Part shown: piece after piece, positions 1,130-47,064 of the stretch | How positions within the stretch are numbered: the stretch's first letter is position 1 | Layout: each line of letters opens with the position of its first letter | Source of the DNA: Leucoraja erinacea | Lineage: Eukaryota | Assembly (NCBI RefSeq): GCF_028641065.1 | Contig: NC_073386.1 | Location: 40,796,001-40,860,000 of the forward strand | Length of the DNA: 64,000 bases | Reading direction: 5' to 3' | Program-made: the position numbers and the translations under genes | The notes under the pieces: model-generated | Databases searched by the model: none | What the model saw: only the letters and a program-made list of their open reading frames with translations | What the model was told of the DNA's origin: nothing

Positions 1130-3139
1130 GGCAAAAAGGCAGAATTAGTGAACCAGATTATGAAAAAGGCATTTATTGACAAAAAAAAAAGGCATTAAAA
1201 CGCATGTTTTTCCACCAACAAAATATGGTTAAAAATGATAATATAAAGGTATACTACATTAAATGACTAAAGTTGCCTGGTCGCACATAATTACTAGCAT
1301 TTTTTTTCAAATTATCTGGTGTGTGTCGTCTATGCCTATGCCGTCTGTCAGACAGAATATGCTTCAGTTGTGAAAAACTTATTTCTACCTCAGCTGAGGT
1401 TACTAGTGCATACCTGAAACTAGCTACAGACTCTATATTTTCTGTCGATATCTTGTGCATTACTATTACCTTTGAGAATTTTAGCTATGTTTTGTGTTTC
1501 TTCAAGATCCTTGTTACCTAAAATCACTCTCTCACATTTTCCTTGTATGTCTTTACCTACATCGCCAGGAATTTTACGAATATCGTCAGTTACTTTGTTA
1601 AAAACCTGCACATTATTCACTAATGTTCGCCATGTTTCTCAAGGGAAGTAATAGCTTGTGGGAAGTTTGCAAAATTGGAAGCAATAAACACAAGATCGCA
1701 GTGAAGAGACTTTTACTGCATGATTTTACAGACGATCCTGACTGCAGCAGATTCGTCTTTTTCAAAACAGTTGACGATTTCTTTTATCTTTTCAAAATTT
1801 GCAGCATAGTAGAGTACAGCAGAGAGCCATGTACCCCACCTAGTCAAAGTGGGCTTAGGAGGTAGCGGAATCTCTGGTGCTATTTCCTTGAACAACATGT
1901 GACGGTGCTTTGAGGAAGATTTTCTTGACATTGGAAACTAGGCGATCAACATTTGGAAACAAGCTACATATATGCTTGCCAATTCTATGAAGTCCTTGAG
2001 CTAAGCATGTCAAATGCAACATTTTGGGGATTAAAACTTTAAGAGCACGAGTAGTTTTTTTCATGTACGGAGCTGCATCAGTTACAAACAGAAGAACATT
2101 CTCGTGTTTTATACCTTCTGGCCAAAGTACAGCAAGTGAAGATGTAAACAACTGAGCAATAGTTGAGCTGTTTGACTTCCCCAATACTTCCAATGTGAAA
2201 AATACTCCTTTGATGGTTGCCTCCAGTGTACCGATGACCACATTGGCAACATATCTCCCCACATTGGTTGTCTCGTTTATTGCGATCCATATTTTGTTGC
2301 ATGCAATTTCATCTCTAATTTTCTGCACAACAATGTTGAAGTTGCTGTCAACATAATTCTTCCATAATGACGACTCGCTTGATATATGTTGTGTATTTCT
2401 CTAAAAAACCTTTGAGAGATTTGTTTTCCAATTTCCACAATGGAATTCCAGCATCAATGAATGCCTTGCACAGATCACTCAAACTCAGATTTGCGACTGG
2501 AGCCAATAGTGAGGAGACAAGCTTGGGTATTTCGCTTGGGTAGTCTACACCCCAGCGGTATCAACATTGACTTCTCTAATTTTAGATAGCTCGTGCCTTT
2601 TTCCAACTCCCCTTCCCCCTTCCCAGCTCTCCTTCTAGTCCTACTGTCTGTTCCTCGTCCTTTCTTTTTCCCCGCCCCTCCCACATCAGTCTGAAGAAGG
2701 GTCTCGACTCGAAACGTTGCCTATTCCTTCTCTCCATGGATGCTGCCTCACCCACTGAGTTTCTCCAGCATTTTTTGTCTACCTTCGATTTTTCCAGCAT
2801 CTGCAGTTCTTTCTTAAATAGATCTTGGAGAAGACTGAACCAGCGGGCAGCGGCACAAAGAAATGAACGACCGACGCCCCCGGTTTTGCCCCGGTGGTGG
2901 TGGACATTTTCTTGTAAGTTATACTATGTTAACACGTTAATAATAACATTAATATTAACGTGTTAACATAGAAAACGTCATTGTGATCACGGTACAACTA
3001 GAGAAAATAGCACAACCTTTTAGCAAAATGGCAAAAAAAGTGATTTACGCACTCGATCGTGAAAAAGGCATTATCCTGGTGAAATCATCAAAAAAGGCAT
3101 GAAAAGGCACATGGCATTTATGGCAAAATCCTGGCTCTA
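1130..3139 (-). mobile_element. Decayed hAT-superfamily DNA transposon (DUF659 / CGGBP-like transposase)
   Basis: Frameshifted minus-strand pieces: IWIAINETT..GRYVANVVIGTL, LLFVTDAAPYM, HLTCLAQGLHR, LPPKPTLTRWGTWL, VTSAEVEISFSQLKHILSDRR; subterminal AAAAGGCA repeats at both ends; interrupted by a Penelope insertion. Confidence 0.8.
2522..2820 (+). mobile_element. Penelope-like element 3' end (GIY-YIG C-terminus + hammerhead-like motif)
   Basis: Encodes FRLGSLHPSGINIDFSNFR*, then a pyrimidine tract, CTGAAGAAGGGTCTCGACTCGAAACGTT (2691-2718) and the family tail CCAGCATCTGCAGTTC. Confidence 0.75.
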
Positions 3140-3307
3140 GTAATAACCATTTGACAAAATAGTGATATGAGCACAGGGGAGGGGGTGAAAGAAGAGGGGG
3201 GAGGAGGGGGGAGGGGGAGGGGGAGGGTTGTTAGAGATGACCCAAAAGACATCTTATGATGTCTTTGGTGTTTCAGTCTCCCATATCCTAGTGATGTGCT
3301 GGTAGGA

Positions 3308-3505
3308 AAGACACAAATGCTGGAGTAACACAGTGGGTCAGGCAGCATCCCTGGAGAACATGGATAGGTGACGTTTTGGGTCAGTTTGAAGATGGATCCA
3401 GACACGAAACATCATCTATCCACGATCTCCAGAGATACTGCCTGACCCAATGAGTTACTCTGGCATGTTGTGTCTTTTTGTTGTAACCCAGCATCTGCAG
3501 TTCCT
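3308..3505. mobile_element. Palindromic (inverted + direct) short Penelope-derived element
   Basis: Minus copy 3308-3380 abuts plus copy 3382-3505 of the same family. Confidence 0.7.
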
Positions 3506-4604
3506 TATCTCGACATTTTGATGTGCTGGTAGGTTGACTGGTCAACGTAAATTGCCCCAATGTGGGAAAGTGGCAAAAGCATCAAAGGGCAGTTGTTAGC
3601 ATGTGGGAGAGACTGGGTTACAGAGCTGCAGGAGAGATGGGGGAAGGACACTGACGAGATTATTCCACTGGGAAACGGCACAGAGCGATGGTCCTCTCCT
3701 GTGTGTAGGGAAGGAAAGTTGTGACTCCAGCCCCCACATTGCAGCTGCGAATGTTTGTGTCGATCGCTTTCCCTTCTCTCCACCACCGGCCCAGTCACCG
3801 GGAGGGAGTTTGCAGCTGGGATCTCTGACGCCCATGGCTGCAGCTGCCTGCATCAGCTCTGCCTGAGCAACCGTGTTAAGCACCACCCTGGCTCCTGGTG
3901 CAAGAGGTGGGGTGTGTGGGGGGGTGTGGGCAGCCTAGAGAGCACACCGTCAGCAAGATGGGGATGGGGAACAGTGCAGTCGATGGAGGAGAGAATTGTC
4001 TGTATCCGTCCAACTGCCAGCTACTGTGGGGTGGAATTAACAGCCCTTGTTAAGTTGACTTGCCTTCCTCTCGACATTGATGAAGTGCTCGCTGGTACGA
4101 GCTCCTCAGACCCACTTCAGAGTGGCTTTTGATAAATGCCTCCCTGCCAAGGCAGCAGTGGAATATCTCATTTTCTGTCTTACAATCTAATCACGGCATG
4201 AATAATTCATGTTCCGTGGCTCTCAATATTAAACACATTTGCAGTAATGTCCATACTTTTCGCCATAAATCATTGGTGATTGATTTGATTTGAGCTGCTT
4301 CGAGGGGCCTCAGAATCTGGCTGATTAGCATATGGTAAATGGGAAAAATCCTGTCACCGTTCCCTCTTAATCCTGACCCCAAGATAAACATCTCAGCTGA
4401 AATAGGTTTACTTAAAGGTCTTCAGTTGGAGCCCCTGGGGCTTCTGTATCAATGCCTCTTCTTCATTCACTGCAGATGTGTGAGATATGCATTGTCCCGG
4501 GCCTTCTGTAAATACTGGCACACTCCTTGGTCTCTCCCGCTCGCTCGCATGCTGACAACTCTCCCTAGGAATCGTTTGCTAAATTTTACGATTAATCCGT
4601 AGAT

Positions 4605-4992
4605 AGAGTCATGAAGTCATACAGCGTGGAAACGGGCATTTCAGCCCAACTCGCCCACAATGGCCAACATGTCCCATCTACATTAGTCACACCTGCCTAC
4701 ATTCAGACCATATCCCTCCAAGGTACACAAAATTGCTGGAGAAACTCAGCGGGTGCGGCAGCATCTATGGATCGAAGGAAATAGGCGACGTTTCGGGCCG
4801 AAACCCTTCTTATCCCTCCAAACCTGTTTTATCCATGTACCTGTCTAAATTTTTCTTAAACATTGCGATAGTACCAGCCTGAACTAATTCCTCAGGCAGC
4901 CTGTTCTATATACCCACCACCCTTTGTGTGAAAAAGTTACCCCTCAGTTTCCTATTAAATCCTTCCCCTCCTCACCTTAAACTTATGTCCTC
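4605..4992 (-). mobile_element. CR1/HER1-like LINE 3' end
   Basis: Reverse strand ...ERFNRKLRGNFFTQRVVG-like coding end plus GGGC(C/T)GAA.GGCC.GTTTCC tail. Confidence 0.7.
4722..4810 (-). mobile_element. Short Penelope-derived insertion with 11-bp TSD inside a CR1 tail
   Basis: TATCCCTCCAA at 4711-4721 and 4811-4821 flanks the family sequence. Confidence 0.8.
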
Positions 4993-5142
4993 CGGGACTG
5001 ATGACAGAAGTGGTTTGCACATGTGGCCGGAATATAGGGGTGAGCTCTCCTGCTCCCTTGGACAGTCGAACGAATTGTAGAGCCAGCACTTCGATACGTG
5101 CTGCCCCATGAGGAGAGGGCAGCAGGGCTGGGGGAGGAGGGG

Positions 5143-5175
<33 letters not shown>

Positions 5176-5539
5176 GTGAGGGCAGTCAAGGCTGAAAACG
5201 TCAGACCTAATCCTCTTTTTCAATCTAATTCCACGCACCAACAGACTCAGGAACAGCTTCTTGCCCCCTATTATCAAACTTTTGTAATGTCCTTCCATAG
5301 GCTTGGGGTACAGTCCCGATTCTCCAACCCTACCTCATGTTGACTTTGGACTTTTGCCACTGAGACGGTTAGACTATGCTGAGAACTGTATCTCTCCTTT
5401 CACTCTACTTTTTGCACTTGTATTTGGCTTGATTGTATTTATATGTATCGGATTGTCTGATTTAATTGGGTAGCACACAAATAAACGTTTTCACTGAACT
5501 TCAGCACTCGTGACAATAATAAACCGTAAAACTAAGTGA

Positions 5540-6210
5540 GCGGTCTCATGGCCCTCCGTTTCTTCCTCCAACAGAACCCCGATCAATTTCCCTCTACTAA
5601 CACTCTCCTCTGTCTGGTAGAACCTGTCCTCACCCTCAACATTGATTGAATTGATTGAATTCCTTTATTGTCATTCAGACCTTACGGTCTGAACGAAATT
5701 TCGTGCCTGCAGTCATACATAAAATAATACAATAATAAACAACAATAAACACAAATTAACATCCACCACAGTGAGTCCTCCAAACACCTCCTCACTGTGG
5801 TGGAGGCAAAAATCTTAGGGCTGCAGTCTTCCCTCCTCTTCTCCCTCTGCGCTGAGGCGATTCCCCACCGGGCGACGGTACAAACAGTCCCGCAGCTCAC
5901 CGAACCCTGCGAACGGGCCGGTTCAAACACTGCGGTTCAACAACATCTCCTTTGGCTCCTCTCACTTCCTACAAGTTAAAGGAGTAGCCATGGCCACTTG
6001 CATGGGTCTCAGCTATGCCTGCCTTTTTATTGGTTACATCAAACAATCCTCGTTTCAGGCGTACACTGGCCTCAATGACTGCATCAGGGCTGCCATCGTG
6101 CGGAATTCGTGGATTTCATTAACTGGCAATTCACATTGTCACCTTTCCGTGCCCGCTAGAGATGCTGCTTGACCTGCTGAGTTGCCCCAGCACATTGTGT
6201 CCTTTTGTGC
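5540..6210 (+). mobile_element. Penelope-like reverse transcriptase fragment, interrupted by a Rex1-type tail (about 5642-5935, -)
   Basis: ALRFFLQQ...TLLCLVEPVLTLN / NNISFGSSHFLQVKGVAMATCMGLSYACLFIGY matches the PLE RT QxxGxAMG motif. Confidence 0.7.
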
Positions 6211-8619
6211 AGTATAGATTTGGTGTGTTGAAATCCGTAACCTTTGGAGAGTCATTTTGGTTCCTGCCCAACCACTTACAGGGGTCAACAACGCTCTCAA
6301 ATTAAACCGTTGCAAAGATAAAGTGCATCAAAAATGTTGCCTGGCACCATCAGTAGACCATACATGTTGGGATTTCCAACTTATTTAAAAAAACAAAACA
6401 ATATTCTCAACAATTTTACACCAGTATTTTCTTTGTGGATTAGGATGGGGGTGGTCTCACTATTTTGAAAAGAAAAGGAAGATGGTGATTCTGCTGATGC
6501 TGTCGGCTGCAAGTGGTTTCCTTGGAGACGAGTTATTGCTGTTAAGTGACTAAGGGGCAAGACATGAAGGCCGGCTACATCGTTGGTTGATCTCTGATTG
6601 GTCCCGCTGCACGATGACGAGACATCACTAATGAGCACACGTCTAATTTTAACCTTCAGCCCTACAAGGAACGACTGGTAAAAAATACAATCTGGCATCT
6701 TGTTTACACTGTGCTAAAACCCTGCATCTAATGAATGGCTCTGTGGTGCCGCTCTCTGTTGCAAGGGTAGATGGAGTTGTCACTCTGAGCTCAGCAGGCA
6801 GGCAGGCAGCACAGCCAGTAACTGGTTAACTGGCCAGTTAGTCGGATGTTTGCAGTGAAGAGGAGAATTGGGTTGGAAATGGGAATGATCTTTCATATCC
6901 AGTTGGACTTAGTTTTAATTTAGTTTGGTTTAAAGCTACAGCTTGGAAATAGGTTCTTCGTCCCACCGAGTCCATGCTGACCATCGATCACTCATTCACA
7001 CCAGTTCCCTGTTATCCCACTTTCGCATCCACTCCCTGCACATTAGGGGCGATTTTTACCTACAAATTGGGCCAATTAACCTGCCATGTCTTTGGGACGT
7101 GGGAGGAAACCAGAGCCACCCGATGGAAACCCACAGGGGGTCTGTGCAAACTCCACTCAGACAGCGCCTGAGGTCAGGATCGAACTCGGGTGTCTGGAGG
7201 TGTGTGGCAACTGCATGGAGTTTCTCCCTGTGACCACATGGTTTTTCCTGAGTGCTCCGGCTTCCACCCACACTCCAAAGACGTACAAGTTTGTAGATTG
7301 ATTTGGCTTTGCTAAATAAAATTGTAAATTTCCCCCAGCGTGTAGAATAGTGTTAGCGTACGTGACGATCGCTAGTCGTAACGGACTCGGTGGGCCAAAG
7401 GGCCCGTTTCCTGAATCTAAAGTCTAAATCTCAGTATCTAGTCTGGGGCGTGCACTCGGGAACGTGAACGTTCCAATACGATCATCAGAAATTTGGAAGT
7501 GCTGTCTTTCCACTCCCTAAACCTCACAGCCCCTCCATTCCCCCCCACCCTCCCACAGCCCTGCTGCAACCTCACGCTCTCCTCTGATGTGAAGGTGAAC
7601 ATTGAGGGGCTATCAGAGGTCTCTAGGTTAGGTTGTGGTTTTACACTGAATGTGTAAAGTCCCTGCTTCTGAGTATTCAGTGAAATCAGATGGATCGCTT
7701 TAAATCCTTGAGTTTTCCTCATGGCTAATTTACATTGTAATTGCTGGTGATGAATGTATCCTCCCACGGTTTGGAATCAATATTCTGTCACTGGGTGTAT
7801 TTAGCGGAACATTTGAACAAGATTGCCAGCCAGTGCCAACTGCTGGATCTAGCCAGGGGCACAAGCAGCTTGGGAATGCGAAGGAGGGGCTGGGGGTGGG
7901 GTGCGGTAGGGGGAGGGGGAGGAAGGGCTGTGGAACCAGAGAGGGCGAGTGCAAGAAGGGGAGCGGGGACAGACTGGTGAGTAGGTGAAGTGGGAGCGGG
8001 GGGGCCTCAAGATGCATGGAGTGGGGAACGAGCCTGGTGGCAGTTTAGGAGCAAGACCCAGAGTGGGGCTGAGTGTAGAATGGTGCGGCACAAGGTGTAC
8101 AAAATGGGAGGCGGCAAGTGGAAGATAGGAAGCGGACCACCGGAGACAGAGGCGGGTGCGACTGCAAGAGAAGGGCATGAGGGACGTATAAATGCAATGA
8201 AAGTTTAGTGAAACCATCAGCGGTTTTGCCTCTTGTCCTAACTGTTCGGAGAGTTAGGACTCTCCTTACACTGCAAGTCCTGCAGACGTGAACAAAAAAT
8301 CAGACATTATATCAAAGGCTGGACTTTGAGTACGAAGGTAAGCAAAATGGAATTAGGGGAATCCAGGGATATGGGGATGGTGCAGGAAAATGACACTGAG
8401 GTCAAAACAAAACATCAAGTGCTGCAGGACCTCAACAGATCAGGCAGCATCTGTGGAGGGAATCGACTGGCCGGAACCCTTCTTCACACTAGGGATATAA
8501 GATCAGCTATGATTAAACTCAGGAACAGAGCAGGCTTGAGGCGCTGAATGGCCTACCTCTGTGTCTTTTATTCCTATGTAATCAGGAGTTGACCACTCAG
8601 CCACTTGGCCCTGTGGAGT

Positions 8620-9440
8620 TATTAGAGTCATAGAGTCTTACAATGTGCCCACCCCTGGATTAGAGTCATAAATACAGTGTGGAAGCAGGCCCTTCGGCCC
8701 AACCTGCCCAGACCAACATGCCCCATCTACACTAGTCTCACTTGCCTGCATTTGGCCCTTATCCCTCTAAACCTGTCCTATCCATGTACCTGTCTAATTG
8801 CTTCTTCAATTTTACGATAGTCCCTGCCTCAACTACCTCTACCAGTAGCTCGTTCCATATACCCACCACCCTTTGTGTGAAAAAGTTACTCCGCAGATTC
8901 CTATTAAATCTTTCCCCCTTCACCTTAAATCTATGCTCTTTGATTCTCAATTGCTACTTTGGGCAAGAGACTCTGTGTCTACCCAATCTATCCCTCTCAT
9001 GGTTTTGTACATCTCCATAAGATCACCCCACATCCTCCTGCGCTCCAAGGAATAGAGTCCCAGCCTGCTCAACCTCTCCCTATAACTCAGGCCCTCGAAT
9101 CCTGGCAACATCCTCGTAAATCTTCTCCGCGCCTTTTCCAGCTTGACAACATCTTTCCTATAACATAGTGCCCAGAACTGAACATAATGCTCTAAATGCT
9201 GACTCACCAACGATTTATATGAATGCAAAATGACCTCCCAACTTCTACTCTCAATACTCTGACTGATGAAGGCCAATGTGCCAAAAGCCTTCTAGACCAC
9301 GCTATCTACCTGCGTTGCTACTTTCAACAATCTCCTTGATCCGTCTGCTCTACAGCACCCCAGAGTCCTACCTTTTACTGTGTAGGTCCTGACTGTGTTA
9401 GTCTTCCCAAAAGGCAACACTTCACGTTTCTCTGTATTTC
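8620..9440 (-). mobile_element. CR1/HER1-like LINE 3' fragment
   Basis: ORF-track peptides LYKSLV..HLEHYVQFW...RRFTRMLPG...LGLYSLERRR and RFNRNLRSNFFTQRVVGIWNEL. Confidence 0.85.
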
Positions 9441-11340: not shown

Positions 11341-12804
11341 TTGTAGGGGCTTTTTGTCGCAACAGGCCCTTTGATTAGTGTGCGTGTGGCAGAGGTTATG
11401 GGGAGAAGGTATCTGATCCCTAGGAGTGTCAAGGGAGGGGAGCGGAGGGATTGATCACTAGGGGGAGTCCGGGCAGGGGGGAGGGGCAGAGGGGAGGTGT
11501 CTCATCCCTAGGAGTGTTAGAGGAAGGGGGCAGAAGTGATTGATCCCTGTGCGGGGGGCGGGGGCGAGGGGAGGCGGCCAATCACTAGGGAGAGTCGAGG
11601 CGGGGGGGGGGGGGGGGAATGGAGGGGAGGTGAGTGAGCCCCAGTGGAAACCAAGAGAGGCTGTACCTCCTGGGCAGTGCTCATTCTAAGAGAAATGTGA
11701 ACTGCACTTGACGCAATGAAATCCAATAAGCCACCTGATCAATGGGGTCGGGGCTGCACCCTGCGGTGTAGGGAGGAGAGCTGCCCCAGTGCTGTTAAAC
11801 CATCAGTGAAAGCAGAGATGAATGATGCTGAGAGCAGTCTGTGATTGATGGGACAGGTGGGGGTTATGGAGGCTACTGTGACAGACCTCGTCCATCCGTG
11901 ACTCGCTGTCGTTTTCCCTTGGGACAGTGGCCAGCTCCGGCAGGGTTTGCCTCCAATTCCCAGCACAGCTGGAGGGGAGGGGGGTGGGTGGGTTAGATGC
12001 ATCATTGGCCCAGGCCCAGACCCAGCTGTGGTCAAAGCTGTCCGCAGGCTCACTGCCTCCCCCTGCTGTCTGGGTATGGTAATGCTTGCATCACCTTGGC
12101 CTGCAAGTCCCCAAGCACTTCACAACTGGGAACTGCAGTACTCCCAAAGCAAAAAGGACATAGAGTGCGGGAGTAAAGTAGCTGCTCTTTCAGCATCTTT
12201 GGAGAACGTGGATAGGTGACGTTTTGGATCGAGACTTCTTTGGACTCGATCTTGGAAAGGCACACAGCAAGATTCTATGAACATGGGCCTGATCATTTCA
12301 TAAGTTCTAGCAGCAGAATTAGGCCATTCGGCCCATTGAGTCTACTCCACCATTCAATCATGGCTGATCTATCTTTACCTCTCCAGGAAGGAGGATAGCC
12401 CTGCAGATAGTCACAGATTCATGCAGTGTGGAAACAGGCCCTTCTGCCCAATGTACCCCCCACACCAGCCAACATGTCCCATCTACACTGGTTTCGCCTG
12501 CCTGCGTTTGGCCCATATCCCTCTAAACCTGTCCTATCCATTAAATATTTGAACAGCAACTCGGGTTCTTGGCAGGTGGGAATTGACTTTAAATGACAGT
12601 GCCTCCACTGACAGATTCATGATTAGTAAGGATGTCAAAGGTTATGGGAAGAAGGCAGGAGAATGTGATTGAGGGGGAAATATAGATCAGCCATGATTGA
12701 ATAGCGGAGCAGCCGATGGAAGAATGACCCAACTTGGCCTTTGGTAATTACTGATGAACATGGAGCAGTATCAGTGCAGCCCAGGTTAAGAACACAGAAC
12801 ACAG

Positions 12805-13272: not shown

Positions 13273-13780
13273 CAAGACATCATAGGAATAGGTCCTTCAC
13301 CCCACAATGTCTGTGCCAGACATAATGTCAAGATGAACTATAATCACATCTGTCCTCACATGATCCATACCCCTCCATTCCCTGCATATCCATGTGTCTA
13401 AGTATAAAACCTCTTAAATGGCACTGCACCATGTGCCTGCACCATCACCCCTGACAGTGTGTTCCAAGCACCCATTTTTCTATGTAAAAAAAAATGGCAC
13501 ATCTACGTTAAACTTTTCTGCTCTCATCTTAAAGCTCTGCCCTCCAGTCTGTGACATTCCCACCCTGGGGAGAAAGGGTTGGGACTCTCCATCCCATTTA
13601 TGCCTCTAATAAATGTATATACTCCTGTCAGGTCCCCCCTCAGCCTCTGCCACTGCCGACAGCCATCCAGCATCATTCGGATAACACTAAAAACTGGCAA
13701 CGTGGTCAGCACAGACATTGTGGGCCGAAGGGCCTGTTCTTGTGCTATATTGTTCTAAACCTGTCAGTGCCAGGTTTGTG

Positions 13781-13960
13781 TATGAAGGAACTGCAGATGC
13801 TGGTTTAAACTAAAGATAGACACAAAATGCTGGAGTAACTCAGCGTGACAGGCAGCATCTCTGGAGAGAAGGAATGGGTGACGTTTCAGGTTGAGCCCCT
13901 TCTTCAGACTGACGTCAGGGGGGGTGGAGGGGGAGAGATAGATTAGGAAGTGTGAAGGGT
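13781..13960 (-). mobile_element. Short Penelope-derived element with hammerhead-like core
   Basis: Minus strand CTGAAGAAGGGGCTCAACCTGAAACGTC at 13880-13907 plus family tail. Confidence 0.7.
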
Positions 13961-15850
13961 GCCAGGTTTGTCTCTGGGATGGAGCGGTGGAGCTGACGTC
14001 CGTATCTGGGCACAGACAACGCTGCTGCAATTAACCTGGTCAAGAAGGCAACGGCCGTATTGTAACGGTCGGTTCATAATAAAATGCACCCTTCGGATAT
14101 TTTACTGACTGCCATTCTCTCGAATTGTCCGGGCAGTTTGCCAGTTGTGAGTGCGAACTGTGATCCAGGATATTCCTGGATTTTGAGACTTGCAGGGGAA
14201 TTAAGGTGAAGTGTGTTCCCAATGCCGCATCAGGAGGGCTGCCTGCAGCTGTGAGCATCGCTGGGGCAGTTTTCAGTCGGCTCCCACACAGAGCGTGCCG
14301 CGCTGGAACAGAACGGGAAACCTCGCAAAGCAGGGATACAGGCCACCTGGGGTGACGAGTGTACAGCACGCCACCAGTCTGCCAAGGGTGGCACAGCGGT
14401 AGAACTGCTGCCTTACAATGGGCAGCATTCTCAGCAAAGGAAGTGGCGGCACAGTGGCATAGCAGTGGAGTTGCTGCCTTACAGCGCCAGAGACCCAGGT
14501 TCGATCCTGACTACGGGTTCCCAGAGAAAACACACGCAGTCACAGGGAGAACATGCAAACTCCGCACAGACAGAGGGACCCTGCCTCAGTGGGTCGTGGA
14601 GGTGGGTTCTCTGGATACTTTCAAGAGAGAGCTAGATAGGGCTCTTAAAGATAGCGGAGTCAGGGGATATGGGGAGAAGGCAGGAGCGGGGTACTGATTG
14701 GGGATGATCAGCCATGATCACATTGAATAGCGGTGCTGGCTCGAATGGCCGAATGGCCTACTCCTGCACCTATTGTCTATTGACAGCGCCTGTAGTCAGG
14801 AATGAGCCCGAGTCGCTGGCGCTGTAAGGCAGCAGCTTTACCGCTGTGCCTATAGGCAGCCCACCGACCTCAGCTGGGAACGTTGCCCATTGTAAAGGCA
14901 CCGAGCTCAGTGTAAGTCAGTGGCTGGTACCAATCAGCTTCCTGTGCCTATGTTCACTCCACCAAACGGATGCCTTGATGCTGAGCAAGGGGGACAGTTG
15001 GAGGTCATTGAGCAGTAAGAAAAGATTAAACCAAGCTGACGTGCGCCAAGTAACATTAGCGGAGGGTCCACATCTCCCTGCCTTCACTGAAGCTGACAGA
15101 GTGATTACGTCCACTGATCGCGATTGTTAACCTTGATGGGGACAGCGACCGTGCTCACTCTGCAGACGTGGTGAATGGAGGCCAGCCTGAGAACATTCCC
15201 CCCTGATGACCCTGACATCAAGCAGGCCAAGAGCTCCAAGCACCCTGCCTGGGGTCAAACCCTGATATCATTGACCCACATCTCCACAAGTCTGCGAGAA
15301 GTCTCTTGGAGAACACGGATAGGTGACGTTTCAGATTGGGGCCTTTCTTCAAATTGACCTGCTGAGACACCCCAGCACTTTATGCCTTTTTTGGTGATCC
15401 AGCAACTGCAGTTCCTTGTGTCTATACTTTCCAGGGATTCAGCTTGCTACCAGTTTCGATACAAGACTGTTCAGATACTTGAAGCAGTCTGATTCTGAGC
15501 CAGGACGTGGGAGAGGTTAAATCACCATTATGGTCAGTAGTGGCAACACTTCCTCTATTTTTACTTTACTTAAAACCTTTGTTACCACTCCCCCATCACT
15601 AACTGACCAGTTAACTAATCCAGTTGCCCAAGGCAAATTGATGTTAACTACACGAGTTCAGTTCAGTGATTCTCTCTGATAGTAGGTAAGGATTTCAATC
15701 TGCTCTTCCGTTTACCTGAATTGAGCTCAATTTCTGTGCAAGAACTTTCAAGCCCCTAACCAATGCTTCCAACCCTGGCTGTGACTTGGGGAATGATACA
15801 AAGGCATGGGACAAAGAAATGCCAAATTTTTGCCAGTTTATTGACTCGTA

Positions 15851-16290
15851 TGGCGGCACGGTGGTGCAGCGCCAGAGACCTGGGTCGAATCCCGACTACG
15901 GGTGCTGTCTGCACAGAGTTTGTACGTTCTCCCCATGACCGCGTAGGTTTTCTCCGGGTGCTCCAGTTTCCTCCCACATTTCAAAGACGTACAGATTTGT
16001 AGGTCTGTAGAAGGTCAGTCTGTAGAAGGGTTTTGGCCCGAAACGTCGCCTATTTTCTTCGCTCCATAGATGCTGCTGCACCCGCTGAGTTTCTCCAGCA
16101 ATTTTGTGTACCTTCGATCTTCCAGCATCTGCAGTTCCTTCTTGAACAGATTTGTAGGTTAATTGGCTTTGGCAAAAATTGTAAATTCTCCCTGGTGTGT
16201 AGGATAGTGCTTGTGTACGGTGTGATCGCTGGTTGGCGCGGAGTCAGTGGCCTGTTTTCACACTATTACTAAACTAAACTAAACTAAATA
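15851..16290 (+). mobile_element. V-SINE (HE1-like), host of the TSD-flanked PLE mini-element
   Basis: GGCACGGTGG head, TTTTCTCCGGGTGCTCCAGTTTCCTCCCACA V-domain, (CTAAA)n tail. Confidence 0.85.
16005..16145 (+). mobile_element. Short Penelope-derived insertion with 14-bp TSD inside a V-SINE
   Basis: ACAGATTTGTAGGT at 15991-16004 and 16146-16159. Confidence 0.8.
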
Positions 16291-16719: not shown

Positions 16720-17810
16720 AAAAGCTTAGGTGCTGTATCAAACACGATTGCTGAAACTAAAAGCTCGTGGTGTAGATGAGGTAATGGCATTGTTAGAAGA
16801 TAGGCTGGCTAACTGGAAACAGATTGTAGGCATGAATGGATCTTTTGCTAGTTGGCAAAATGGAACAAGTGATATAGCAAAAGGATCAGTCCTGGGTTCG
16901 CCACCATTTTGCAATTTACAGAAGTGATTTGGATAAAGACATTGAAGATGTACTTGTGTAGGAAGGAACTGCAGATGCTGGTTTATAGCAAAGATAGCCA
17001 CAAAGTGCTGGAGTCACTCAGTGGGTCAGGCAGCATCTCCAGAGAACATGGATAGATGACCTTTCAGGTCTGGACCATTCTGTCTGAAGAGGGTCAGGCA
17101 ACATCACTGGAGAACATGGATAGGTGGCGTTTCGGGTCGGGACCCATCTTCAGACTAAAGAACTCCGCCCCAACCAGCGATCACACAGTACACAAACGTC
17201 ACCTTGCCCTTGGGTTCCAAAACGTCACCCATCCTTTTTCTCCAGAGATGCCACCTGACCGGCTGAGTTACTCGAGCTCTGTGTTTATCTGAGGATGTAC
17301 TTGTTCCATTTGCTGAAGATTCAAAACCAGGCAGGAAAATCAGTTGTGAAAATAGATCAGGTGCTATAGAGAGATACAAATACGCCAGATGAGTGGACAG
17401 GTGGACTAAAAAATGACAAATATGAAACTATCCAATTGGCAAGAATAATGTAAAAGAATTTTGCATATATTTGGGTGACTCTTTAGAAGTCTAAAACGCA
17501 AGAGGATCTGTGTGTCCCAATGCATGATTCACAAAACATGCAGAGAATATTTAGGGACGGAGGATGCGAATGCAAAAGTGGAGATGTCGTACCTCACATT
17601 ATTTAGGGCATAGATGATATCACATCTGCAGTACTGTGTATAATTTCAGGCTAACACCAGGTTGTCTTTCGAGGAAAGATTGGACACCCTGGGCTTGTGT
17701 CCGCTAGAGTTCAGAAGAGGGAGTAGATGCTTAATTAAAACCAATAAAGCATGTGGGGCCTTGTCACGTTGGATGTTTTTAAGGCAGAGGCAGAGAGATG
17801 CATGATCGAA
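16720..17810 (+). mobile_element. Old CR1 LINE RT remnant interrupted by a palindromic Penelope-derived cluster (about 16955-17290)
   Basis: RLLLKLKARGV...LANWKQIVGMNGSFASWQ..TS.I..GSVLG peptide; later LGLCPLEFRR-like segment. Confidence 0.7.
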
Positions 17811-18512: not shown

Positions 18513-18790
18513 ATTGTCTGAAGAAGGGTCTCGACCCAAAACGTTACCTATTCTTTTTATTCAGAGATGCTGCCTGACCCGTTGAGTTACTCCAGCTATT
18601 TGTGTCTATCTTCAAAACTAAATTAAACTCTGCTACTGGACGGCCTCTCAAAATCCGTGCATGAAAAACGCATGATGTGCTGATAGGAATACATTGACTT
18701 GTGCCCCAGTGTAGAGTGGGCCATGGATAATTTGGTAGATCAGAGGCATGAACGCCCCAGGTTGCTCACTATGTTGTTGTGTCTCTGCAG

Positions 18791-19047
18791 ACTCGGCCAT
18801 ACAAGTGAACTCCACGTCGATGAGCTCGTCTCCACACTCGACTGTGAACTCAGTGGTCAGCCATCACTCGATGATCGGATCCTCGATAAACGCTTCGCGC
18901 TCTCTCGCCTCCTCCATGGGAAACTTGGGCTCTCCGGTCAACGGGCTGGGATCGCCCTATCCCGTCATCACCTCGTCCATAGGTTCTCCCTCGGTCTCCT
19001 TGCTGTCTACCCCAGGCATCGGCTATGGACCGCTCGGCAGTCCCCAG
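18791..19047 (+). CDS. RXRG: RXRG exon 2 (A/B domain)
   Basis: tctctgcag|AC TCG GCC... to CCC CAG|gtaaaa; encodes (D)SAIQVNSTSMSS...GSPVNGLGSPYPVITSSIGS...GYGPLGSPQ, a Ser/Pro-rich RXR N-terminus; preceding intron phase 1. Confidence 0.9.
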
Positions 19048-20116
19048 GTAAAACCTCAGCTAGGGCAAAGGTTACCGTTTTGGGGGCTATCTCAAATTAA
19101 TGAACGGAACAAGGGTAATGTAATAGAGCCACTGGTTCTCTGTCACAGACACCCGGGTTGAACTGCCACCTCGAGTGCTCTCTGTGTGGAGTTTGCATGT
19201 TCTCCTTGTGGGTTTTCTCCAGGTACTCTGGTTTCCTCCCTCATCTCATAGACTAGTGGATGGGCAGAAATTGGCCCCTTAGCCCACTGAGACTGCGCTG
19301 ACCAGATATCCCCGTACATTAGCACTATCCTACTCACTAGAGACAACTTTACCAAATCCAATTAACCTACAAACCTGCACATCTTTGGAATATGGGAGGA
19401 AAACCGGAGCACCCGGAGAAAACCCATGCAGTCACAGGAAGAACATGCAAACAGCATCCGAGGTCAGGATCGAAACCATGTCCCCGGAGGTGCGAGGCAG
19501 CAGCACTACCTCCTGCAGCACCATGCCGACATGCTGGCGGGCTTGCTCTGTTTGCCTGGTGTGGGTAGCTGTTTGTGATTAACACAGGCAGAGCAGTCCA
19601 CACTGCACAGGACATCAGCTGCATGTAGCAAGACAAAAACACTCATTGCAAAAGGCTTAACGCATGCTTTAGAGAGCCTTCTCACTGAGACATGTTCCTC
19701 ATTGAGCAGTTGTTCTCTCAGCTGGACAGCAAAATTACTGGGAGAGGTGGGAGTGGGACAAAGCCTGTCCTTTACCCAGTGAGTGGCGCCTTCTCAAAGC
19801 TCACAGATGTGTGCAGGGGTGAGGAAACAGCATGGATGTGTTTAAGAAGTAGCAAGGCAAGTGAACGTGGGAGCAGGAATGGGGTGTGATGACTGCGGGA
19901 GATGAAGTGACACAGGAGACAGTTCCTGTGGAGCATAAACACTGGCACAAAACTGTTCAACCCAATGGTTCTTTCTCTGGTATTAAATTCTGCACAATCC
20001 CTGAAACACTTCATGAAGAGTTTAAAAACTGCCTATGCTGGAAATCTGAAATAAACCACATAAAAGCAGTGGAAACACTCAGCAGGTCAGGCAGCATCTG
20101 TGGAGAAACAGTTTGA

Positions 20117-22907: not shown

Positions 22908-23590
22908 AGGCCTTCATCAGTAAGAATAACGAGTATAGAAGGTGGGTGGTCATGTTGCAGTTACATCAGATGTTGGTGAGGCCACATTATTGATAGACAC
23001 AAAATGCTGGAGGACCTCAGTGGGACAGGCAGCATCTCAGGAGGGAAGGAATGGGTGACGTTTCGGGTCGAGACCCTTTTGTATTGTGTTCAGTTTTGGG
23101 CACCGTGTTATTAGAACGATGTTGTCAAACTGGAAAGGGTGCAGAGAAGGGTCACAAGGATGTTACAAGGACTCGACGGCCAGAGCTATTGGGAGAGGTT
23201 GAGCAGACTAGGTGGATCAGGGGTGATCATACAGAAATGTACAAAATCATGGGAGGAATTGATCTCTTGAGTCTCTTGCCCAGAGTAAGGAAATTGAGAA
23301 CCAGAGGACATAGGTTTAAGGCAAGGGGAAGAAAGATTTAATAGGAACCTGAGGGATAACTTTTTACGCAAAGGGTGGTGGGTGTATTGAACAAGCTGCC
23401 CAAAGAGGTGTTGAGGCAGGTACTATCACAGCGTTTAAGAGACATTTGGATGGGTATATGGATAGGATGGGTTTAGATGGGTATGGGCCAAACGCTGGCA
23501 GGTGGGAATAGTGTAGATGGAGCATGTTGGTGGGTGTGGGCATGTTGGGCCAAAGGGCCTGTTTCCACATTGTATGACTCTATGATTCTA
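22908..23590 (+). mobile_element. CR1/HER1-like LINE 3' fragment with a Penelope-derived insertion (about 22990-23080)
   Basis: AFISKNNEYRRW.VMLQLHQMLVRPH / CVQFW...RTRGHRFKARG...; CR1 tail ending TATGACTCTATGATTCTA. Confidence 0.8.
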
Positions 23591-29450: not shown

Positions 29451-31254
29451 TCATAGTTGACACAGATGTGGTAAGTCCAGGGCCTCTTCATGTGCTGTAC
29501 TGCCCTCGGTTTCTAAAGCTAACCAAATGACGACATACTCAGTCCAATCTCAGTGGAACAAGAGAAGGTTGCCTCGTGAATCGGACAGCACTGGGGCAGA
29601 TTGCATCTTAGCCCGTTCTTGGCACTAAGCCGCAAAAGGACTATTCAAACATAGGAGGCAATGCTAAAAGGCTGATTGGGTTCTCAGTTAATTAGAGAGG
29701 TTGGGTGGATGAAGACACTTCCACCAAGGAAAAAATGCTCAATGTGAGATGTGAGGTAGTCATGGCTACGGAGGGAGTGGGCATGGAACTCACCCGTAAA
29801 TGTAGCTATTGGTCATTCTTCACACACGCAGTGATCAGCTCTTGGGTATTATGGGCCAACACCCTAGAATGTTTCCAGAGCTGATTAACAGTGATGCATA
29901 TGAGCATCTCCTTGGTCGGACTGAACAGGATGGGCTGAATGGCCACCTTTGGTGATGAGGGCAGCGCGATCATGAGAACTGGTCAGGAGACTGCTCCGGG
30001 TCAGTTGTCAGCTGGCAGGTTCCTCCATTTCTCCCAAATCCAGCCACTTCCCTGGGCATTGCCTTCTGCACAAGGAGCGAGGGAGTTAAACTCCCTGCTG
30101 CCGCCGGTGTTGGCATAGCATCGATGGAGTCAGCAGGAAGGAGAGCATCACCTTCTATTTTTAGGGAGTGCCGAGGTGTTGCAGTGACAGGATGGGATGC
30201 TCAGAGGGCTCCCCAGCTGTCTGAGTAATGTAGTGTGACACCACTGGCCTTTGGGAGTCAGTGCCTGTGCTGCTAATGGATCCAGATCCTGGCCCCACTC
30301 CCATCACACTAGGATCCAGCTCACCAGAAGCTCCACATTAACTCCTGCACCTCTGCCTTCAGTGGCCACACAAGCTTTCCTTCCGCACTTGCCCACCATC
30401 ACTCACCCCTCCCGGAAGTCACTCCCTCTTTCAATGTCCTCTTACTGATGTCCACACCCTGTCTTTTTAACCACATAGACCATCACAGCCAAGTCATCGC
30501 TCATCTCAACCAATAAACAAACACAAAGTGCTGGAGTAACTCAACGGGTTAGGCAGCTTCCTGGGGGGCATGGATGGACGACATTTAGGGTGAAGACCCT
30601 TCTTCAGACTTCCCCTCCCGAGATGCTGCCTGACCTGCTGCGTTACTCGAGCACTTTGTGTGTGTTTTTTTTTTGTAAATTGGCATCTGCACTTCCTTGT
30701 TTCCTATTATAAAGTGAACATTTTTTATTTTTCACAAGGTACCACATTTTCCAGATCTGTGCCCACTCATTTTACATATTTATAGCCCCACTGTAACCTC
30801 CTTATATCCACCATAATTTTTTTCCGACCTGTTCTGCACATCGTTGATAAATTTAGCAATTGTACATTCCATGCCTTCAAAGATTTATAAAAATCATAAA
30901 TAATTGAGGCCCTAACACCAATCTCTATAATACACCACTCATTACATTACATCTCACCTGCCAGAAAAATAAACATTTATCTTTACCCTTTGTTTCCTGT
31001 TAGCCATCCTCTCTTTAACCCTATCTTGGAACAGTACCGCACAGGACCAGGCCTCTCGGCCGATAATACCAGTGCCTAACATGGTGCCAAGACAAACTGG
31101 TAGCTGCCTGCACATGGTCCCTATCCCTCAATACCCTGCACACTTCCTTTAAGCTTTGCCCTTGCACCTTACCATCTAGTATATGTTATATCCATCCTGG
31201 GCAAAAGCTTCTGACTGTCTACCCTATCTATGCCTCTCATAATATTAAATATTT

Positions 31255-34516: not shown

Positions 34517-35475
34517 TGTCATTGAAGGTTTGAAGCAGTGTCTATGGAACAAGCTGCCAGAGGAGGTAGTTGTGGCTGGGACTATCCCCTTTTAAGAAAC
34601 AGTTAGACAGATACATGGATAGGACAGGTTTGGAGGGATATGGACCGAGCGCACGCAAGTGGGACTAGCGTAGCTGGGACATTGTTGGCGGTGTGGGCGA
34701 GTTGGGCCAAAGGGCCTGTTTCCACACTGTACCTCTCTACGACTCTCTGACATATGAAGTTAATGAGTCTGCAGTTTCCTACTTTTTGTTGCCCGCCCTT
34801 TTTGAACAAACAAGCTACATTGACTATTTTCCAATCCAGGTTCAGGAACACCTTCTTCCCTTCAACCATCAGGCTATTAACCACCACAACCTCCAAGTAA
34901 GCTCCAAATTGTTTGTTCCCAGGGCTGGGGATGGGCATGTTCATGGAGCCTCCACGTCCAGTTGCATGTGTAGTAATCCACTACCATTCATGTCATTTTT
35001 CCTGGCAATCCTGAAGAAGGGTCCCAACCCAGAACATCACCTATCCATTTTCTCCAGAATTGTTGCTTGACCCGCAGTGTCACTACAGCATTTTTTTATC
35101 TCTCCTTTGTATAAACAAGCAATTGCAGTTCCTTTTCATTACATTATACCATTCATGACCAAATGCGTTAGGACTTAAGAGCTTCAATCTGATTCATTAG
35201 GTTGTGAGGATGTTTAGCTCAGTCTATTGCATGTAATTTTTGCTTTTGACAACACAAGCAGCCCTATGTTATTTCACCTTGTTTGCCCTTCAGCACGCAT
35301 TCAGTGTTGATGGCGTTTTAGTTATGGTAGAGTGAGGGATATTATAAGCGACAAGGCTACAGACTAAGGTTCTGTACTTAGCCTATTTATACCTCCAATG
35401 CTGATTCAAAACTGCTGGATAGATTCTGAATCTATCCTTTATAAGACCAGTATCATTCCCATGCATAAGAAACGG

Positions 35476-35773: not shown

Positions 35774-36692
35774 TAACAGCGGAAACAAGAGCGGAAGGAC
35801 AGAATGCCCCTGGAACCAGCTCTGTTATTTTATAAGACCACAACTGGTTTGCCCTTGTGTCCAGGCCCTGCCTGGTCCTTTGAATTCCCTTATAGAATTA
35901 ATTAATATCTGTCCATCTCCACATTGAATGTGGAAGGTAGACACAAAATGCTGGAGTAACTCAGCAGGACCGGCAGCATCTCTGGAGAGAAGCAATGGGT
36001 GACATTTCGGGTCGAGACCCTTCTTCAGAAACAAAGAATGTGTTCGTTGATTCCACAGCTCTCTAGAGTAGAGAATTCCAAAGATGTGTAAAATCCTCTG
36101 GAAAAAGCCAGAGCTGAACACACTCCTCGGCACCTGCATACAATGGTATCTATCTTGTCCCTTCCTATGTGTGGTGGTGGAGGAAAGATTGGTGGAAACA
36201 GTGCTGTGACGTGAAGCCTCTTTCCTTGACCCCCTCGTCTCTGTTGTAAAATGGCAATGCCTTATTCTGAAACAATCCCCTTATTTCAAGATTGTTCCAC
36301 AAGGGACTCGGTATTCACCCTATTAATTCCCCTCAAAATCTTATATATCATTTTTTTTTAAAATTATTTTTAGAAGCAATTGTACAAGAATAAAACATTC
36401 GGCATATAAAATTATACAATCATTGTACAGCTTCAATTTTAACCTTTTAACGAAAATAATGGGAAAAGAGAAAGGAAAGAACAAGAAAGAGAACAATTGA
36501 AAGGTGAAAACTAGTACCCCTCGACTACCAAAGTAGTGTGGCCAAAAAAATCCTATATATTTTAGTGAGATTACTTCTCCAAGGCTCCAATCATTCTTCC
36601 CACGGCAACTCCTTCATCTCAGAAATCGAGGCAGTGAATCCAATCGGACCTGCCTCTAATGCCAAAAATTTCCTTTCAGAAGTAAGGAGACC

Positions 36693-39223: not shown

Positions 39224-41645
39224 GTAATGCATACACGACTCTGAGGCTCAGTATTGGGGGCCGATGCTCCGGACATTTCATGAGCCATCTCACATTCTGG
39301 TTGTTAGGGTCCCCATTTCTCTTCAGCCATCATTATGAATGTAGACACAAAGTGCTGGAGTAACTCAGCGGGTCAAGCAGCAACTCTGGAGAAAAAGAAT
39401 AGGTGACGTTTTGGGTCGGGACCCTCCTTCAGACTCATCATCCTCCCCAAGTGAAGATGGACAAAAATGTTTCATCTTATTGCATCCCACCTACTGTATG
39501 CCCAAGACACCCCACACACACTTTGACTCTTTAATGACTTTCAGTTTCCAGTCCCTCTGCACCTCCAACCCCCCATCAGACCCAACCAATTTCCCTCTAA
39601 GAATAATCTCCTCCACCTAGTGGACCTGCAAAACAAACATTATTGCACCCATCCTTTTTCTCCAGGGATGCTGCCTGACCCACTGAGTTACTCCATATTT
39701 AGTCTATATTCGGTATAAACCAGCATCTGCAGTTTCTTGCAACACACTGTTATAAATATGTTCTGCCCGTTGCCCATTCTGGACACAGTGTCGAGGAAAG
39801 ATTGAAATACAGGGCTAACATCCCAGAAAGGGATCATCTGGTAACCTGCATCCAGTACATTCTTACAGGAAGAACAGTGAACCACGGTGAGAGGGAGGGA
39901 AAGGCAGTCTGCTCGGATTGTAAATTAACAGAAGAGGTTTGGGTGTTGTTGGAGCTGGGGGGTGTGAAGTGAACAGGGTGGTACAGTGGTGCTTGATGGA
40001 TCTGTGCAGTCGGTCCCTATAATGATGGGTGGCTGAGAGACGGCTCTCTGCTGATTTTAATTATAGTGTGGCACGGGACTTCATAAGTTCTAGGAACAGA
40101 ATTAGGCCATTCGGCCCATCAACTCTACTCCACCATTCAATAATGGCTGACCTATCTTTCCCTCTCAACACCATGCTCCTGCCTTCTCCCCATGACCCCT
40201 GACAACTGTACTAGTCAAGAATCTATTCATCTCCGCCTTAAAAATATCCATTAACTTGGCCGCAATTAATTCCACAGATTCACCGCCCTCTGATTAAAGA
40301 ATTTCCTCCTCATCTCAGTTTAAAGGGCAAGAAGTGCTGCACTGTGGAAGGGGCAATACTGCTTCACTGTAGCAGGGTGATGCCCAGTGTTAAGGCATTG
40401 CTATGCCTGCTATGTTGAGGCACTGCACTCTCTCAACACCATGCCACCTGACATATCAACAGGGAATACTCTACTGGAAATACATCGCTGGTCAGGCAGC
40501 ATCTTTAGTTTGCGGGCCTCATCCTGGTCAGGAGCTGCCCGAATCTGCCCAGAGAGGCATGGGGTTTACAATATCTACACCCTCTACACTGTCCCATCAC
40601 ACACAGGGCTGGGACAGCACAGATTAGATATACAGTATCAGTAAGCAGTCAGGACTGATCAACAGATAGAACAGAAAAACCAGGGAGCAGCAAACTGCTG
40701 GGGATGGGGAGCAGTCAGGGTCAGTGGAGAGAGACTTTTCTAGCATCTTTAGTTTTAGTTTTGGAGATACTGCACGAAAACAGGCCCTTTGGCCCACCGA
40801 GTCCACGCCGACCAGCGGTCCTACACACTAGGGACAATTTCTAGTCTTTACCGAAGCCAATTAACCTACAAACTTGTATGTCTTTGGAGGAAACCAGAAC
40901 ACCCAGAAAAAAACCCACACCGTCACCGGGAGAAGGTACAAACTCTGTACAGACAGCACCCATAGTCAGGATCGAACCCTGGTATCTTGCCCCATGAGGT
41001 AGCAACTCTACCGCTGCGCCTCTGTGCCACCGTCTCTGTGGAGAGGGATACAGCGTTAATACAGTCAGAGGTGTTGTCTTCCCCATACCACATTAAGCTG
41101 AGACACGGTCTGGAGTAAACCCCATGGGCAGATTCGGGCAGATTCGGGCAGCTCCTGACCAGTAGGATCCTCCTGTGCAGAAACCAACCGCCTGCCCAGT
41201 TTTAAGCCGAACAGGAGAGGCTGCGCCTGGGAATTGTTGGCCTTACTGCAGAGAGTCGGCGAGCCCGCTGAAGCTACGGACCCACAGCAGAAATTCAACC
41301 TATTCCATTCTCTTTTAATATAAATGAGAGCACTAGAGCTTTGAAATGTTTAAATCTTTGATGACCCCAGCAATTACATTCAAACGTGCTGCATTATGGA
41401 TGTTTTAATTAGGGCGCTCTGCATTTGTGAGTGGAGTAGTTAGTAGCCGGCACGGGGTGCTCTGATTGATCCCACGAGGGCAAGGGGATGCCGGATGTAA
41501 TGAGCAGCACGGGTGGCACGGTGGTGGCGCAGCGGTACAGTTGCTGTCTCACCTCAGTGTAACCTGCAACCTCAGTGTAATCCTGGCATTGCCTCCTGGT
41601 CGGGCTGTGTCACCGCTGGCCCTCTCTTCACCACACTGGTTCTGA

Positions 41646-43078: not shown

Positions 43079-43769
43079 GTGTCATGTGCATTGATGCCCT
43101 GGTGTGATTCTCATAAGTTCATAAATTCTAGGAGCAGGATTGGGCCATTCGGCCTATCAAGTCTATTCCACCATTCAATCATGGCTGATCTATCTTTCCC
43201 TCACAACCCCAAACTCCTGCCCTCTCCCCATATCTCCTGACACCCTTGCTAATTACGAATCTATCAATTTCTGCCTTAGAAATATCCATAGACCTGGCCT
43301 CCACAACAATGAATTCCACAGATTCACCACCCACTGACTGAAGAAATTCCTCTTATAAAGATATGTCCTGTTATCTGAGGCTATGGCCTCTGGTCCTAGA
43401 CTCTCCCACAAGTGGAGACATCCTCTCCATGGTTACTCTATCCAGGCCTTTCACTCTATTCCGACAATCAAATGCAGAGTGGCCGCTGACCTCGGTTAGA
43501 AACCACCCAGCACCTGGAGTGGTGACATCTCTGTGTTATGTAAACTGAGCGTCCTCCATCACTGCTTCACTAGATTCATGTACTGAACACAAGGTCACCT
43601 CAGTGCTACTGTGGAGAGACATCCTGCTATGTGAGCCTGTTGGCCGGGGCAGGTAGGGGAAGCTTTTGTTTTATCCCAGCCACAAGGGACTGCAGATTGT
43701 GGAATCTTGAGCAAAACACAAAGTGCTGGTGGAAATCTTAAATGTTTAAGAAACATTTAGGTATGTGTA

Positions 43770-44165
43770 AGAAGGAACTGAGGATGCTGGTTTACACCGA
43801 AGATAGACACAAAATGCTGGATATACTCAGCGGGTCAGGCAGCTTCTCTGGAGAAAAGGAATGGGTGACATTTCGGGTCGAGAACCTTCTTCAGACTGAA
43901 AGTCAGGGGAGAGGGAAATTAACAGTTTGAACAAAAGCTCAGAACAAATCAGTGCCGGCACTGATGGCCAAGGAAAGGTGGAGCCCACAATGGTCCATTG
44001 TTGGCTCTGGCAGAGGTGATAACAAAGGGATAAATGGATGTTGACGGTGGAACTATCAGAATGACTAGGGCAGTGGTGGAGGTGGGGGATGGATGAGAGA
44101 GGGAATGCAAGGGTTACTTGAAATTAGATACGTCAGTATTCATTCCACTGGGTTGTAAGCTGACA
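43770..44165 (-). mobile_element. Penelope-like 3' end with hammerhead-like core
   Basis: Minus strand LQPSGMNTDVSNFK*, pyrimidine tract, CTGAAGAAGGTTCTCGACCCGAAATGTC, family tail. Confidence 0.7.
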
Positions 44166-44274
44166 TTTGGAAGCCTTTAGACAGGTACATGGATAGGACG
44201 GGTTTAGAGGGATATGGGCCAAACGCAGGCAAGTGGGACTATATTTACTGTTCAAAATGCTTATGATCGCACAA

Positions 44275-46542: not shown

Positions 46543-47064
46543 GTGAGTGGAAGCTCCGAACCCTCGACCAGGCCCAGCCTCGCCCAGTGTGAAAGCATAT
46601 GTTCGTAAGTCATAGGAGCAAAAATTAGGCCATTCGGCCCATCGTCTACTCCACCATTCAATCGTGGCTGATCTATCTTTCCCTCTCAACCCCATTCTCC
46701 TGCCTTCTCCCCATAACCCCTGACACCCTTACGGATCAAGAACCTATCAATCTGCATCTTAAAAATAGCCATTGACTTGGTTTCCACAGCCGTCTATGGC
46801 AATGAATTCAACAGATTCACCACCCTCTGGCTAAAGAAATCCCTCTTCATCTCCTTTCTAAAGGTACATCCTATAGCAGGAGTGCAAAGCACAAAGGGTG
46901 CAGGGAGGAAAGGGGATTGGGAGACGGGTATGTGTAGAGGATAATGAAACAGATTGGAGTTTAATGGTTGAGGCTCTGGTTAACATAGGGCAGGTGGGAA
47001 GAGTCGGCCAGGGGTGCAGAGGGAAGGAAAATTAACAAGAGACTGTAGATGCTGGAATCTTGAG

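Follow-up and report, generated by a model that had tools for sequence, protein, structure and literature searches.

The window (the whole 64,000-nucleotide stretch of skate DNA analysed here) carries an RXR gene on its forward strand, traced over 18790–51910 from exon 2 (about 18800–19050) to the last exon (about 51760–51910). One RXR exon scores 82.8 bits against RXR-gamma and 81.4 bits against RXR-alpha, too close to settle the paralogue. Copies of a short repeat are strewn across the window. A profile built from nine of them, used for our copy counts, gives 36 matches when the window is searched alone and 33 when it is searched together with all loci, bearing out a preliminary description that had claimed more than 15. 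A second dispersed repeat lies at 8733–8804, 12499–12541, 23445–23510, 34603–34667 and 48155–48219, and matches 44170–44240. Downstream of the window, an ankyrin-repeat-like exon is discernible by eye only (L110:9770–10000, +).

The copy at 2691 has the sole strictly intact core in the window (1 of 33 copies). Its repeat is whole, about 135 nt long (2684–2819, +; nhmmer E 7e-41), and is composed of a hammerhead, a middle of about 65 nt and a tail of about 40 nt. The hammerhead is a minimal type I motif (min-HHR, 2691–2718, +): core bases 2691–2697, a bulged A, helix II (2699–2702 with 2707–2710, including one G·U pair), GAAA at 2711–2714, the self-complementary ACGT and the triplet GTT (GUU in RNA), with the predicted cut after 2718. 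The conserved core with palindromic 15.2–16.2, the bulged base and G10.1–C11.1 are all present. The anatomy claimed for this copy (core, helix II, GAAA, ACGT and triplet) could thus be located in full, the triplet being GUU and not the GUC expected. Helix I has two pairs only, its third position being A–C, where a minimal type I hammerhead would have 4–5 bp; an early caveat that this helix is very short was well placed. An Rfam search of the window, suggested as a check, returned no hammerhead family at gathering score and none at E up to 10. Energy folding, which can miss ribozyme folds, did not form the hammerhead in the 2691 copy, in the young subfamily or in a natural dimer; helix II at 2691 is predicted to be unformed, a competing pairing taking over. 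About 100 nt past this copy is a near-perfect AT-rich palindrome (2920–2970) with a weak microRNA-model match, probably a chance one.

Directly upstream lie the decayed end of an endonuclease (to about 2583; tblastn E 4.6e-5 over 2476–2583) and a pyrimidine-rich 3′ UTR reached by blastn extension (2476–2690, +), so the 2691 copy is a 5′-truncated insertion of a Penelope-like element (PLE) and not one of the short copies that we call stubs. A similar truncated PLE copy occupies 43765–44165 (−), with an endonuclease end remnant, 3′ UTR and a repeat (43901–43765) whose palindrome is broken. The motif had been said to follow a GIY-YIG C terminus at both places. At 2476–2583 this is borne out by tblastn; the remnant near 44100 is visible by translation and by a 37-nt DNA match, with no tblastn match at 1e-3. 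Further PLE reverse transcriptase (RT) or endonuclease remnants, with no intact repeat directly after them, are found at 5542–6136, 47039–47170 and 47802–47885 (+).

The eight places listed initially as examples are all copies of the repeat; beyond 2691, each is damaged in a core base, in the palindrome or in a pair of helix II. By profile, the copy at 13778–13914 (−) retains its core bases and three of the four helix II pairs, 16956–17160 (−) comprises two partial copies head-to-tail (U16.1 changed in the first), and the stub at 18514–18615 (+), just upstream of RXR exon 2, has G12 replaced by A. The stub at 35928–36033 (−) has a broken palindrome, that at 39335–39440 (−) has A9 and G12 changed, and 47218–47443 is a head-to-head pair in which the sense copy (47307) is altered at C3 and U4. 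The profile also finds a stub at 16011–16148 (+), with core A6 changed and a 14-bp target-site duplication read by eye, and a copy with a U·G helix II variant, truncated inside the core, at 4719–4811 (−). The variant stem at 4787–4811 had been said to keep helix II paired; its change is one-sided (U–A to U·G), and the first core bases are missing. Head-to-head pairs recur at 3298–3507, 15306–15418, 30517–30699 and 56059–56259, the last an overlapping pair that makes a long hairpin with a weak score against microRNA precursor models. Between the target duplication and the core of the 16011 stub (16000–16030), there is a short duplicate of the stub's own 5′ end, resembling an abortive template jump.

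Judged by sequence, the repeat appears to be the terminal repeat (pLTR) of a Neptune-type PLE, in agreement with the Penelope origin first proposed. A single ORF encodes RT (YIDD), a cysteine linker and GIY-YIG in one frame, and the repeat follows its stop codon in sense. Pfam matches are below curated cut-offs (RVT_1, E 1.4e-4; GIY-YIG, E 2.6e-4). In the frame at L199, YIDD is at residue 435, the CX2-5CxxC linker motif at 655 and the endonuclease (EN) at 694–708. A linker of this type, rich in cysteines and placed ahead of the EN, is a mark of Neptune elements, Nematis also sharing it; Neptune and Poseidon are the only PLEs that Li et al. (bioRxiv 10.64898/2026.07.22.740005) report in vertebrates. 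Open frames of 750–900 aa persist at many loci, mostly in the young subfamily, which is about 3% diverged. The unit order is ORF, 3′ UTR, hammerhead, tail, 5′ UTR, ORF, with the start codon 166 nt after C3, outside the ribozyme and past the tail. A full unit of about 4 kb (L195:3430–7395, −) runs tail, 5′ UTR, ORF, 3′ UTR, hammerhead, tail; the tail is present at both ends, the ORF of this copy is split over two frames, and the element ends in the same unit as the repeat at 2684–2819. Features of EN+ PLEs are present: a pLTR with a tail, plus tandem and inverted copies. The L195 copy also has a low-complexity Pro-rich N-terminal region, and long copies at L181 and L200 bear an inverted 3′ end (endonuclease end and hammerhead) on their 5′ side.

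For genome-wide figures we used 10-kb stretches of the larger contigs, 100 in all, placed at round coordinates (999,900 bases). The profile matched 378 times, in 93 of the 100 stretches and over 3.6% of sampled bases, against 0 matches on 1.0 Mb of reversed sequence; by extrapolation, the genome holds an estimated 0.8 million copies or so. An exact 30-mer core occurs 11,482 times and an exact 31-mer core of the young subfamily 15,778 times, the reversed-pattern control giving 0 in each case. Strictly intact cores remain in 27 of 374 random copies. The core is kept in the majority of five of six sequence clusters, and the oldest cluster shows CpG decay at G12 and C15.2. Helix differences between subfamilies are all one-sided changes from U–A to U·G, and GUU is the triplet of the youngest subfamily. 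When other hammerhead families were sought by the core CUGAUGA, the first 100 of 2,420 matches were mainly variants of the same PLE repeat.

Core decay was followed in 432 unselected copies. G12 is changed in 33% of them and other CpG bases in 22–34%; G12 and the palindrome, both within CpGs, are changed in 26–33%, like other CpG bases. At non-CpG core positions there are 52 changes in the 3′ part against 115 expected from base-matched flanks, and 102 against 127 in the 5′ part. In this comparison of core with flanks, of the kind proposed at the outset, non-CpG core bases change less than flanks, but G12 and the palindrome decay as other CpGs do. This conservation fits constraint on source elements with neutral decay of the copies, and selection on copies could also contribute. 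Covariation in helix II, another suggested check, is no better at true pairs than at slid controls (p<0.05 in 1 of 4 true pairs and 3 of 12 slid pairs; 484 gapless-core copies of 866).

These data bear on whether intact sense copies serve the host as regulatory ribozymes that cut pre-mRNA, RXR included. Strictly intact cores exist (the 27 random copies, plus 2691), and RNA reads of the repeat are plentiful, with coverage about 20 times that of the ORF in a bulk RNA run; reads were chosen by species label, and their species may differ from that of the window. Against such a role, G12 is unprotected, helix I is 2 bp and helix II at 2691 is predicted to be unformed. Nor is strand bias evident around RXR, with 14 sense and 19 antisense copies. 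In the accessible parts of the respective sources, monomers are inactive in vitro (PMC4209133), as are eight of nine Xenopus dimers (bioRxiv 2026.07.22.740005). We regard host ribozymes of this kind as very improbable. For RXR itself, intronic sense copies had been proposed to cleave RXRG pre-mRNA; all five sense copies that lie between exon 2 and the last exon lack an intact core, and the intact copy at 2691, a monomer with no partner, stands 16 kb before exon 2 (the position of exon 1 was not established). Ribozyme cleavage of RXR pre-mRNA is unlikely, given that G12 decays like any CpG and that helix II covariation does not exceed controls.

Most copies stand apart from coding sequence, as initially proposed: for 349 of the 378, the 450 nt upstream contain no ORF remnant. 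We mapped the ends of 48 young copies by alignment to ORF-linked references, counting positions from C3. At the 5′ side, 27 copies end at −6 to +2 (mode −2), 20 are spread from −11 to beyond −700, and one was unaligned. At the 3′ side, 22 end at +88 to +97, 17 at +125 to +132 and 9 elsewhere, the two clusters being the two edges of the tail. The 5′ boundary is equally visible among the 15,778 exact cores, of which only 6,587 keep the six upstream bases; 58% lose identity within 6 nt before the core (1,299 breaks at −2, 2,939 at −3 and 1,656 at −4), when point mutation at 3% per site would explain at most about 17%. Target duplications of at least 8 bp are present at 21 of 203 copies, where shuffled pairs average 3.05, and are thus detected in only about a tenth of copies. 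Close pairs among the 378 copies are head-to-head in 70 cases, same-strand in 10 and tail-to-tail in 3. No pile-up of 5′ ends occurs among the randomly sampled copies at the predicted cut after +27, meaning that the template was uncut or rejoined; copies cross the site intact, and stubs start about 30 nt upstream of it. At one locus (L167:5015–5200), three head-to-tail units of 42–43 nt, made of the core alone, precede a full stub.

Taken together, including its element of an RNA 5′ end, we consider it probable that stubs are by-products of the PLE's own reverse transcription and not a separate ribozyme family. By analogy with anole Poseidon in vitro, the PLE RT would start inside the RNA at the two tail boundaries. 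It would often run off just before the core, most likely at a major RNA 5′ end, and the resulting cDNA of 95–135 nt would be inserted with target duplication; less often, synthesis would continue into the 3′ UTR and ORF. Any role of the ribozyme would probably be confined to the tandem RNA of the active element, where it would cut weakly, as a dimer or with the help of protein. Copies decay after insertion, and the stubs in the genome, like 2691, would be inert.

One rival makes the stubs a non-autonomous family, SINE-like or retrozyme, that sustains itself, its members being transcribed, cleaved by their own ribozyme and moved in trans. Such a family would account for the 349 copies that lack a nearby ORF remnant and for the target duplications on some copies, and tandem arrays with a core in most units do exist. 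Stubs and ORF-linked copies, however, have an identical exact core, which together with the heterogeneous stub ends speaks against a separate family, and the non-autonomous ribozyme-bearing family suggested in the preliminary description is not sustained. Stubs also span the cut site, beginning about 30 nt upstream of it, and most of them stand alone or in head-to-head pairs. Array junctions vary from locus to locus, with 33 distinct locus-junctions at 24 loci. We hold such a family to be improbable.

What fixes the 5′ boundary is a separate question. Run-off at an RNA 5′ end has to contend with the many copies and jump junctions that reach −30 to −400, and hence with some templates longer than the proposed start would allow. 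The boundary could instead be an RT stop on a tandem or circular template, set by proteins at a pyrimidine tract/AG resembling a 3′ splice site or by the edge of the ribozyme fold. Such a stop would suit the pyrimidine tract ending in CAG at −4 to −2 in all subfamilies, the spread of ends over about 8 nt instead of a single base and the frequent extension of templates upstream. It would also suit the lack of a clear extra G at the boundary: counted by hand among the first 100 matches listed for each break, an extra G is seen in 38 of 100 at −3 and 36 of 100 at −4, making a cap-derived G weak at best. Yet a stall at the fold would be expected on its 3′ side, not its 5′ side, and the boundary sequence appears to resemble an initiator element. 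A spliced template was considered and rejected, since target duplications flank the stubs directly and the stubs have no upstream exon in common; this weighs against the RT stop as well. RNA reads show no start or end pile-ups on the repeat, in fragmented libraries that show such ends poorly. We judge an RT stop rather unlikely, though it is the chief alternative, and keep run-off at an RNA 5′ end within the preferred explanation.

The ORF start gives a further view of copying. An exact 34-mer from this site has only 114 matches, many of them clustered. We sampled 40 such loci, 12 chosen as clusters and 28 as single matches from the first 100 listed. In 24 of the 40, a junction connects a point at +190 to +310, a short way into the ORF, with the terminal repeat or the 3′ region behind it. 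These loci contain 33 distinct locus-junctions with microhomology of 0–5 nt, one junction being common to two loci; 10 of the 33 land at −10 to +10 (the stub boundary) and 2 at +26 to +35 (the cut site). Some of these copies form hammerhead arrays of 2–13 units. Among them are L301 (G000:C1:24.09 Mb; 13 units, core pattern in 3), L302 (C9:41.12 Mb; 12 units in two inverted halves, core pattern in 10) and L303 (C23:3.11 Mb; 10 units, core pattern in 7), and tandem arrays of pLTR and ORF start are also present at L304–L312, with units of about 60–290 bp across L301–L312. The arrays of L301 and L303 stop at +93/94, a usual 3′ end of the element, and are truncated on the 5′ side. Junctions repeat within an array, yet also vary inside it, and they differ between loci.

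The arrays suggest internally deleted mini-templates that RT copied repeatedly, which would make them retrozymes arising de novo. DNA-level amplification, as discussed in bioRxiv 2026.07.22.740005, or assembly error are possible alternatives; among the reads and contigs listed from four RNA runs, none clearly bridges an L303 junction. A joint reading would combine stubs and arrays: RT starts at the tail and usually runs off at an RNA 5′ end just ahead of the hammerhead, leaving strong-stop stubs by the hundreds of thousands, but sometimes jumps from the terminal repeat to the first 30–150 nt of the ORF, giving a mini-template that is copied round within one insertion and yields arrays de novo, with no later DNA-level amplification. 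We put this forward tentatively, as somewhat short of an even chance. The term 'retrozyme-like', as first applied to the repeat, suits these rare tandem arrays elsewhere in the genome and not the dispersed stubs, which are not tandem (10 same-strand pairs among 378 copies). The arrays of L301–L303 agree with non-LTR retrozymes in being tandem series of hammerhead-bearing units, expected at 150–450 bp each. A retrozyme family has the same unit at many loci, and the arrays depart from this.

As a ribozyme discovery, this repeat is unremarkable, since the motif, its PLE origin and its dispersed solos have been described before (Cervera and de la Pena 2014, PMC4209133). Less familiar are the fixed 5′ ends near the core and the ORF-start junction arrays, which likely record the copying of the parent element. 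We found no published description of either, although supplements, Repbase and subscription papers may contain one, and no literature, by title, on a skate family of such repeats, which Repbase or supplements may hold. The value of the repeat lies elsewhere. How PLEs transpose is poorly understood, and the copies form a very large natural data set on the process; their end positions indicate where transcription and RT may begin in a Neptune element, which can be tested. The arrays are relevant to the step from PLE to retrozyme, left open in the 2026 preprint. If the joint reading given above is true, the copying cycle of Penelope elements is written in this genome to the single base, together with the birth of retrozymes.

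Comparison with known systems draws on the accessible portions of the papers cited. Like the min-HHRs of PMC4209133, the skate motif has no loop 3, a palindromic 15.2–16.2, an unpaired base between 9 and 10.1 and G10.1–C11.1. That work likewise describes single motifs dispersed by the thousands, opposite-strand pairs and Neptune elements of fish that carry the motif; solo motifs are widespread there, and monomers inactive. The skate helices are shorter (helix II 4 bp and helix I 2 bp, against 7–8 and 4–5 bp in Schistosoma), a 2-bp helix I being reported in what we could consult only for Drosophila virilis. Copy number is far higher in the skate (an estimated 0.8 million repeats against 4,000–9,000 motifs), and the GUU of its youngest subfamily sets it apart from the motifs described there.

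Anole Poseidon (Frangieh et al. 2024, PMC11167929), for which internal RT initiation, a tail and an uncut template are described, shares with the skate element an RT–GIY-YIG ORF, two 3′ end positions bounding a 30–40-nt tail and the copying of uncut RNA. Unlike Poseidon, the skate element has its start codon 166 nt after C3, past ribozyme and tail, and a cysteine linker; its sharp 5′ boundary at the core is not described for Poseidon in the available text of PMC11167929. EN+ Neptune PLEs (Craig et al. 2021, PMC8557442; Arkhipova et al. 2013, PMC3846280) offer a close parallel, with a cysteine linker, 5′ truncation, partial tandems, head-to-head inverted copies, an optional tail, solo pLTRs and internally deleted derivatives. 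Rotifer solo pLTRs are ascribed to recombination or deletion, whereas many of the skate solos have fixed ends and are flanked by target duplications.

Animal non-LTR retrozymes (PMC7229834; Li et al.), whose PLE origin is put forward in the 2026 preprint (bioRxiv 2026.07.22.740005), resemble the rare skate arrays in units of 160–290 bp, a type I hammerhead in many units and derivation from a PLE pLTR. They differ from the dispersed skate stubs in being tandem, and from the skate arrays in that the latter, known from DNA, include the ORF start, locus-specific junctions and the normal 3′ end of the element.
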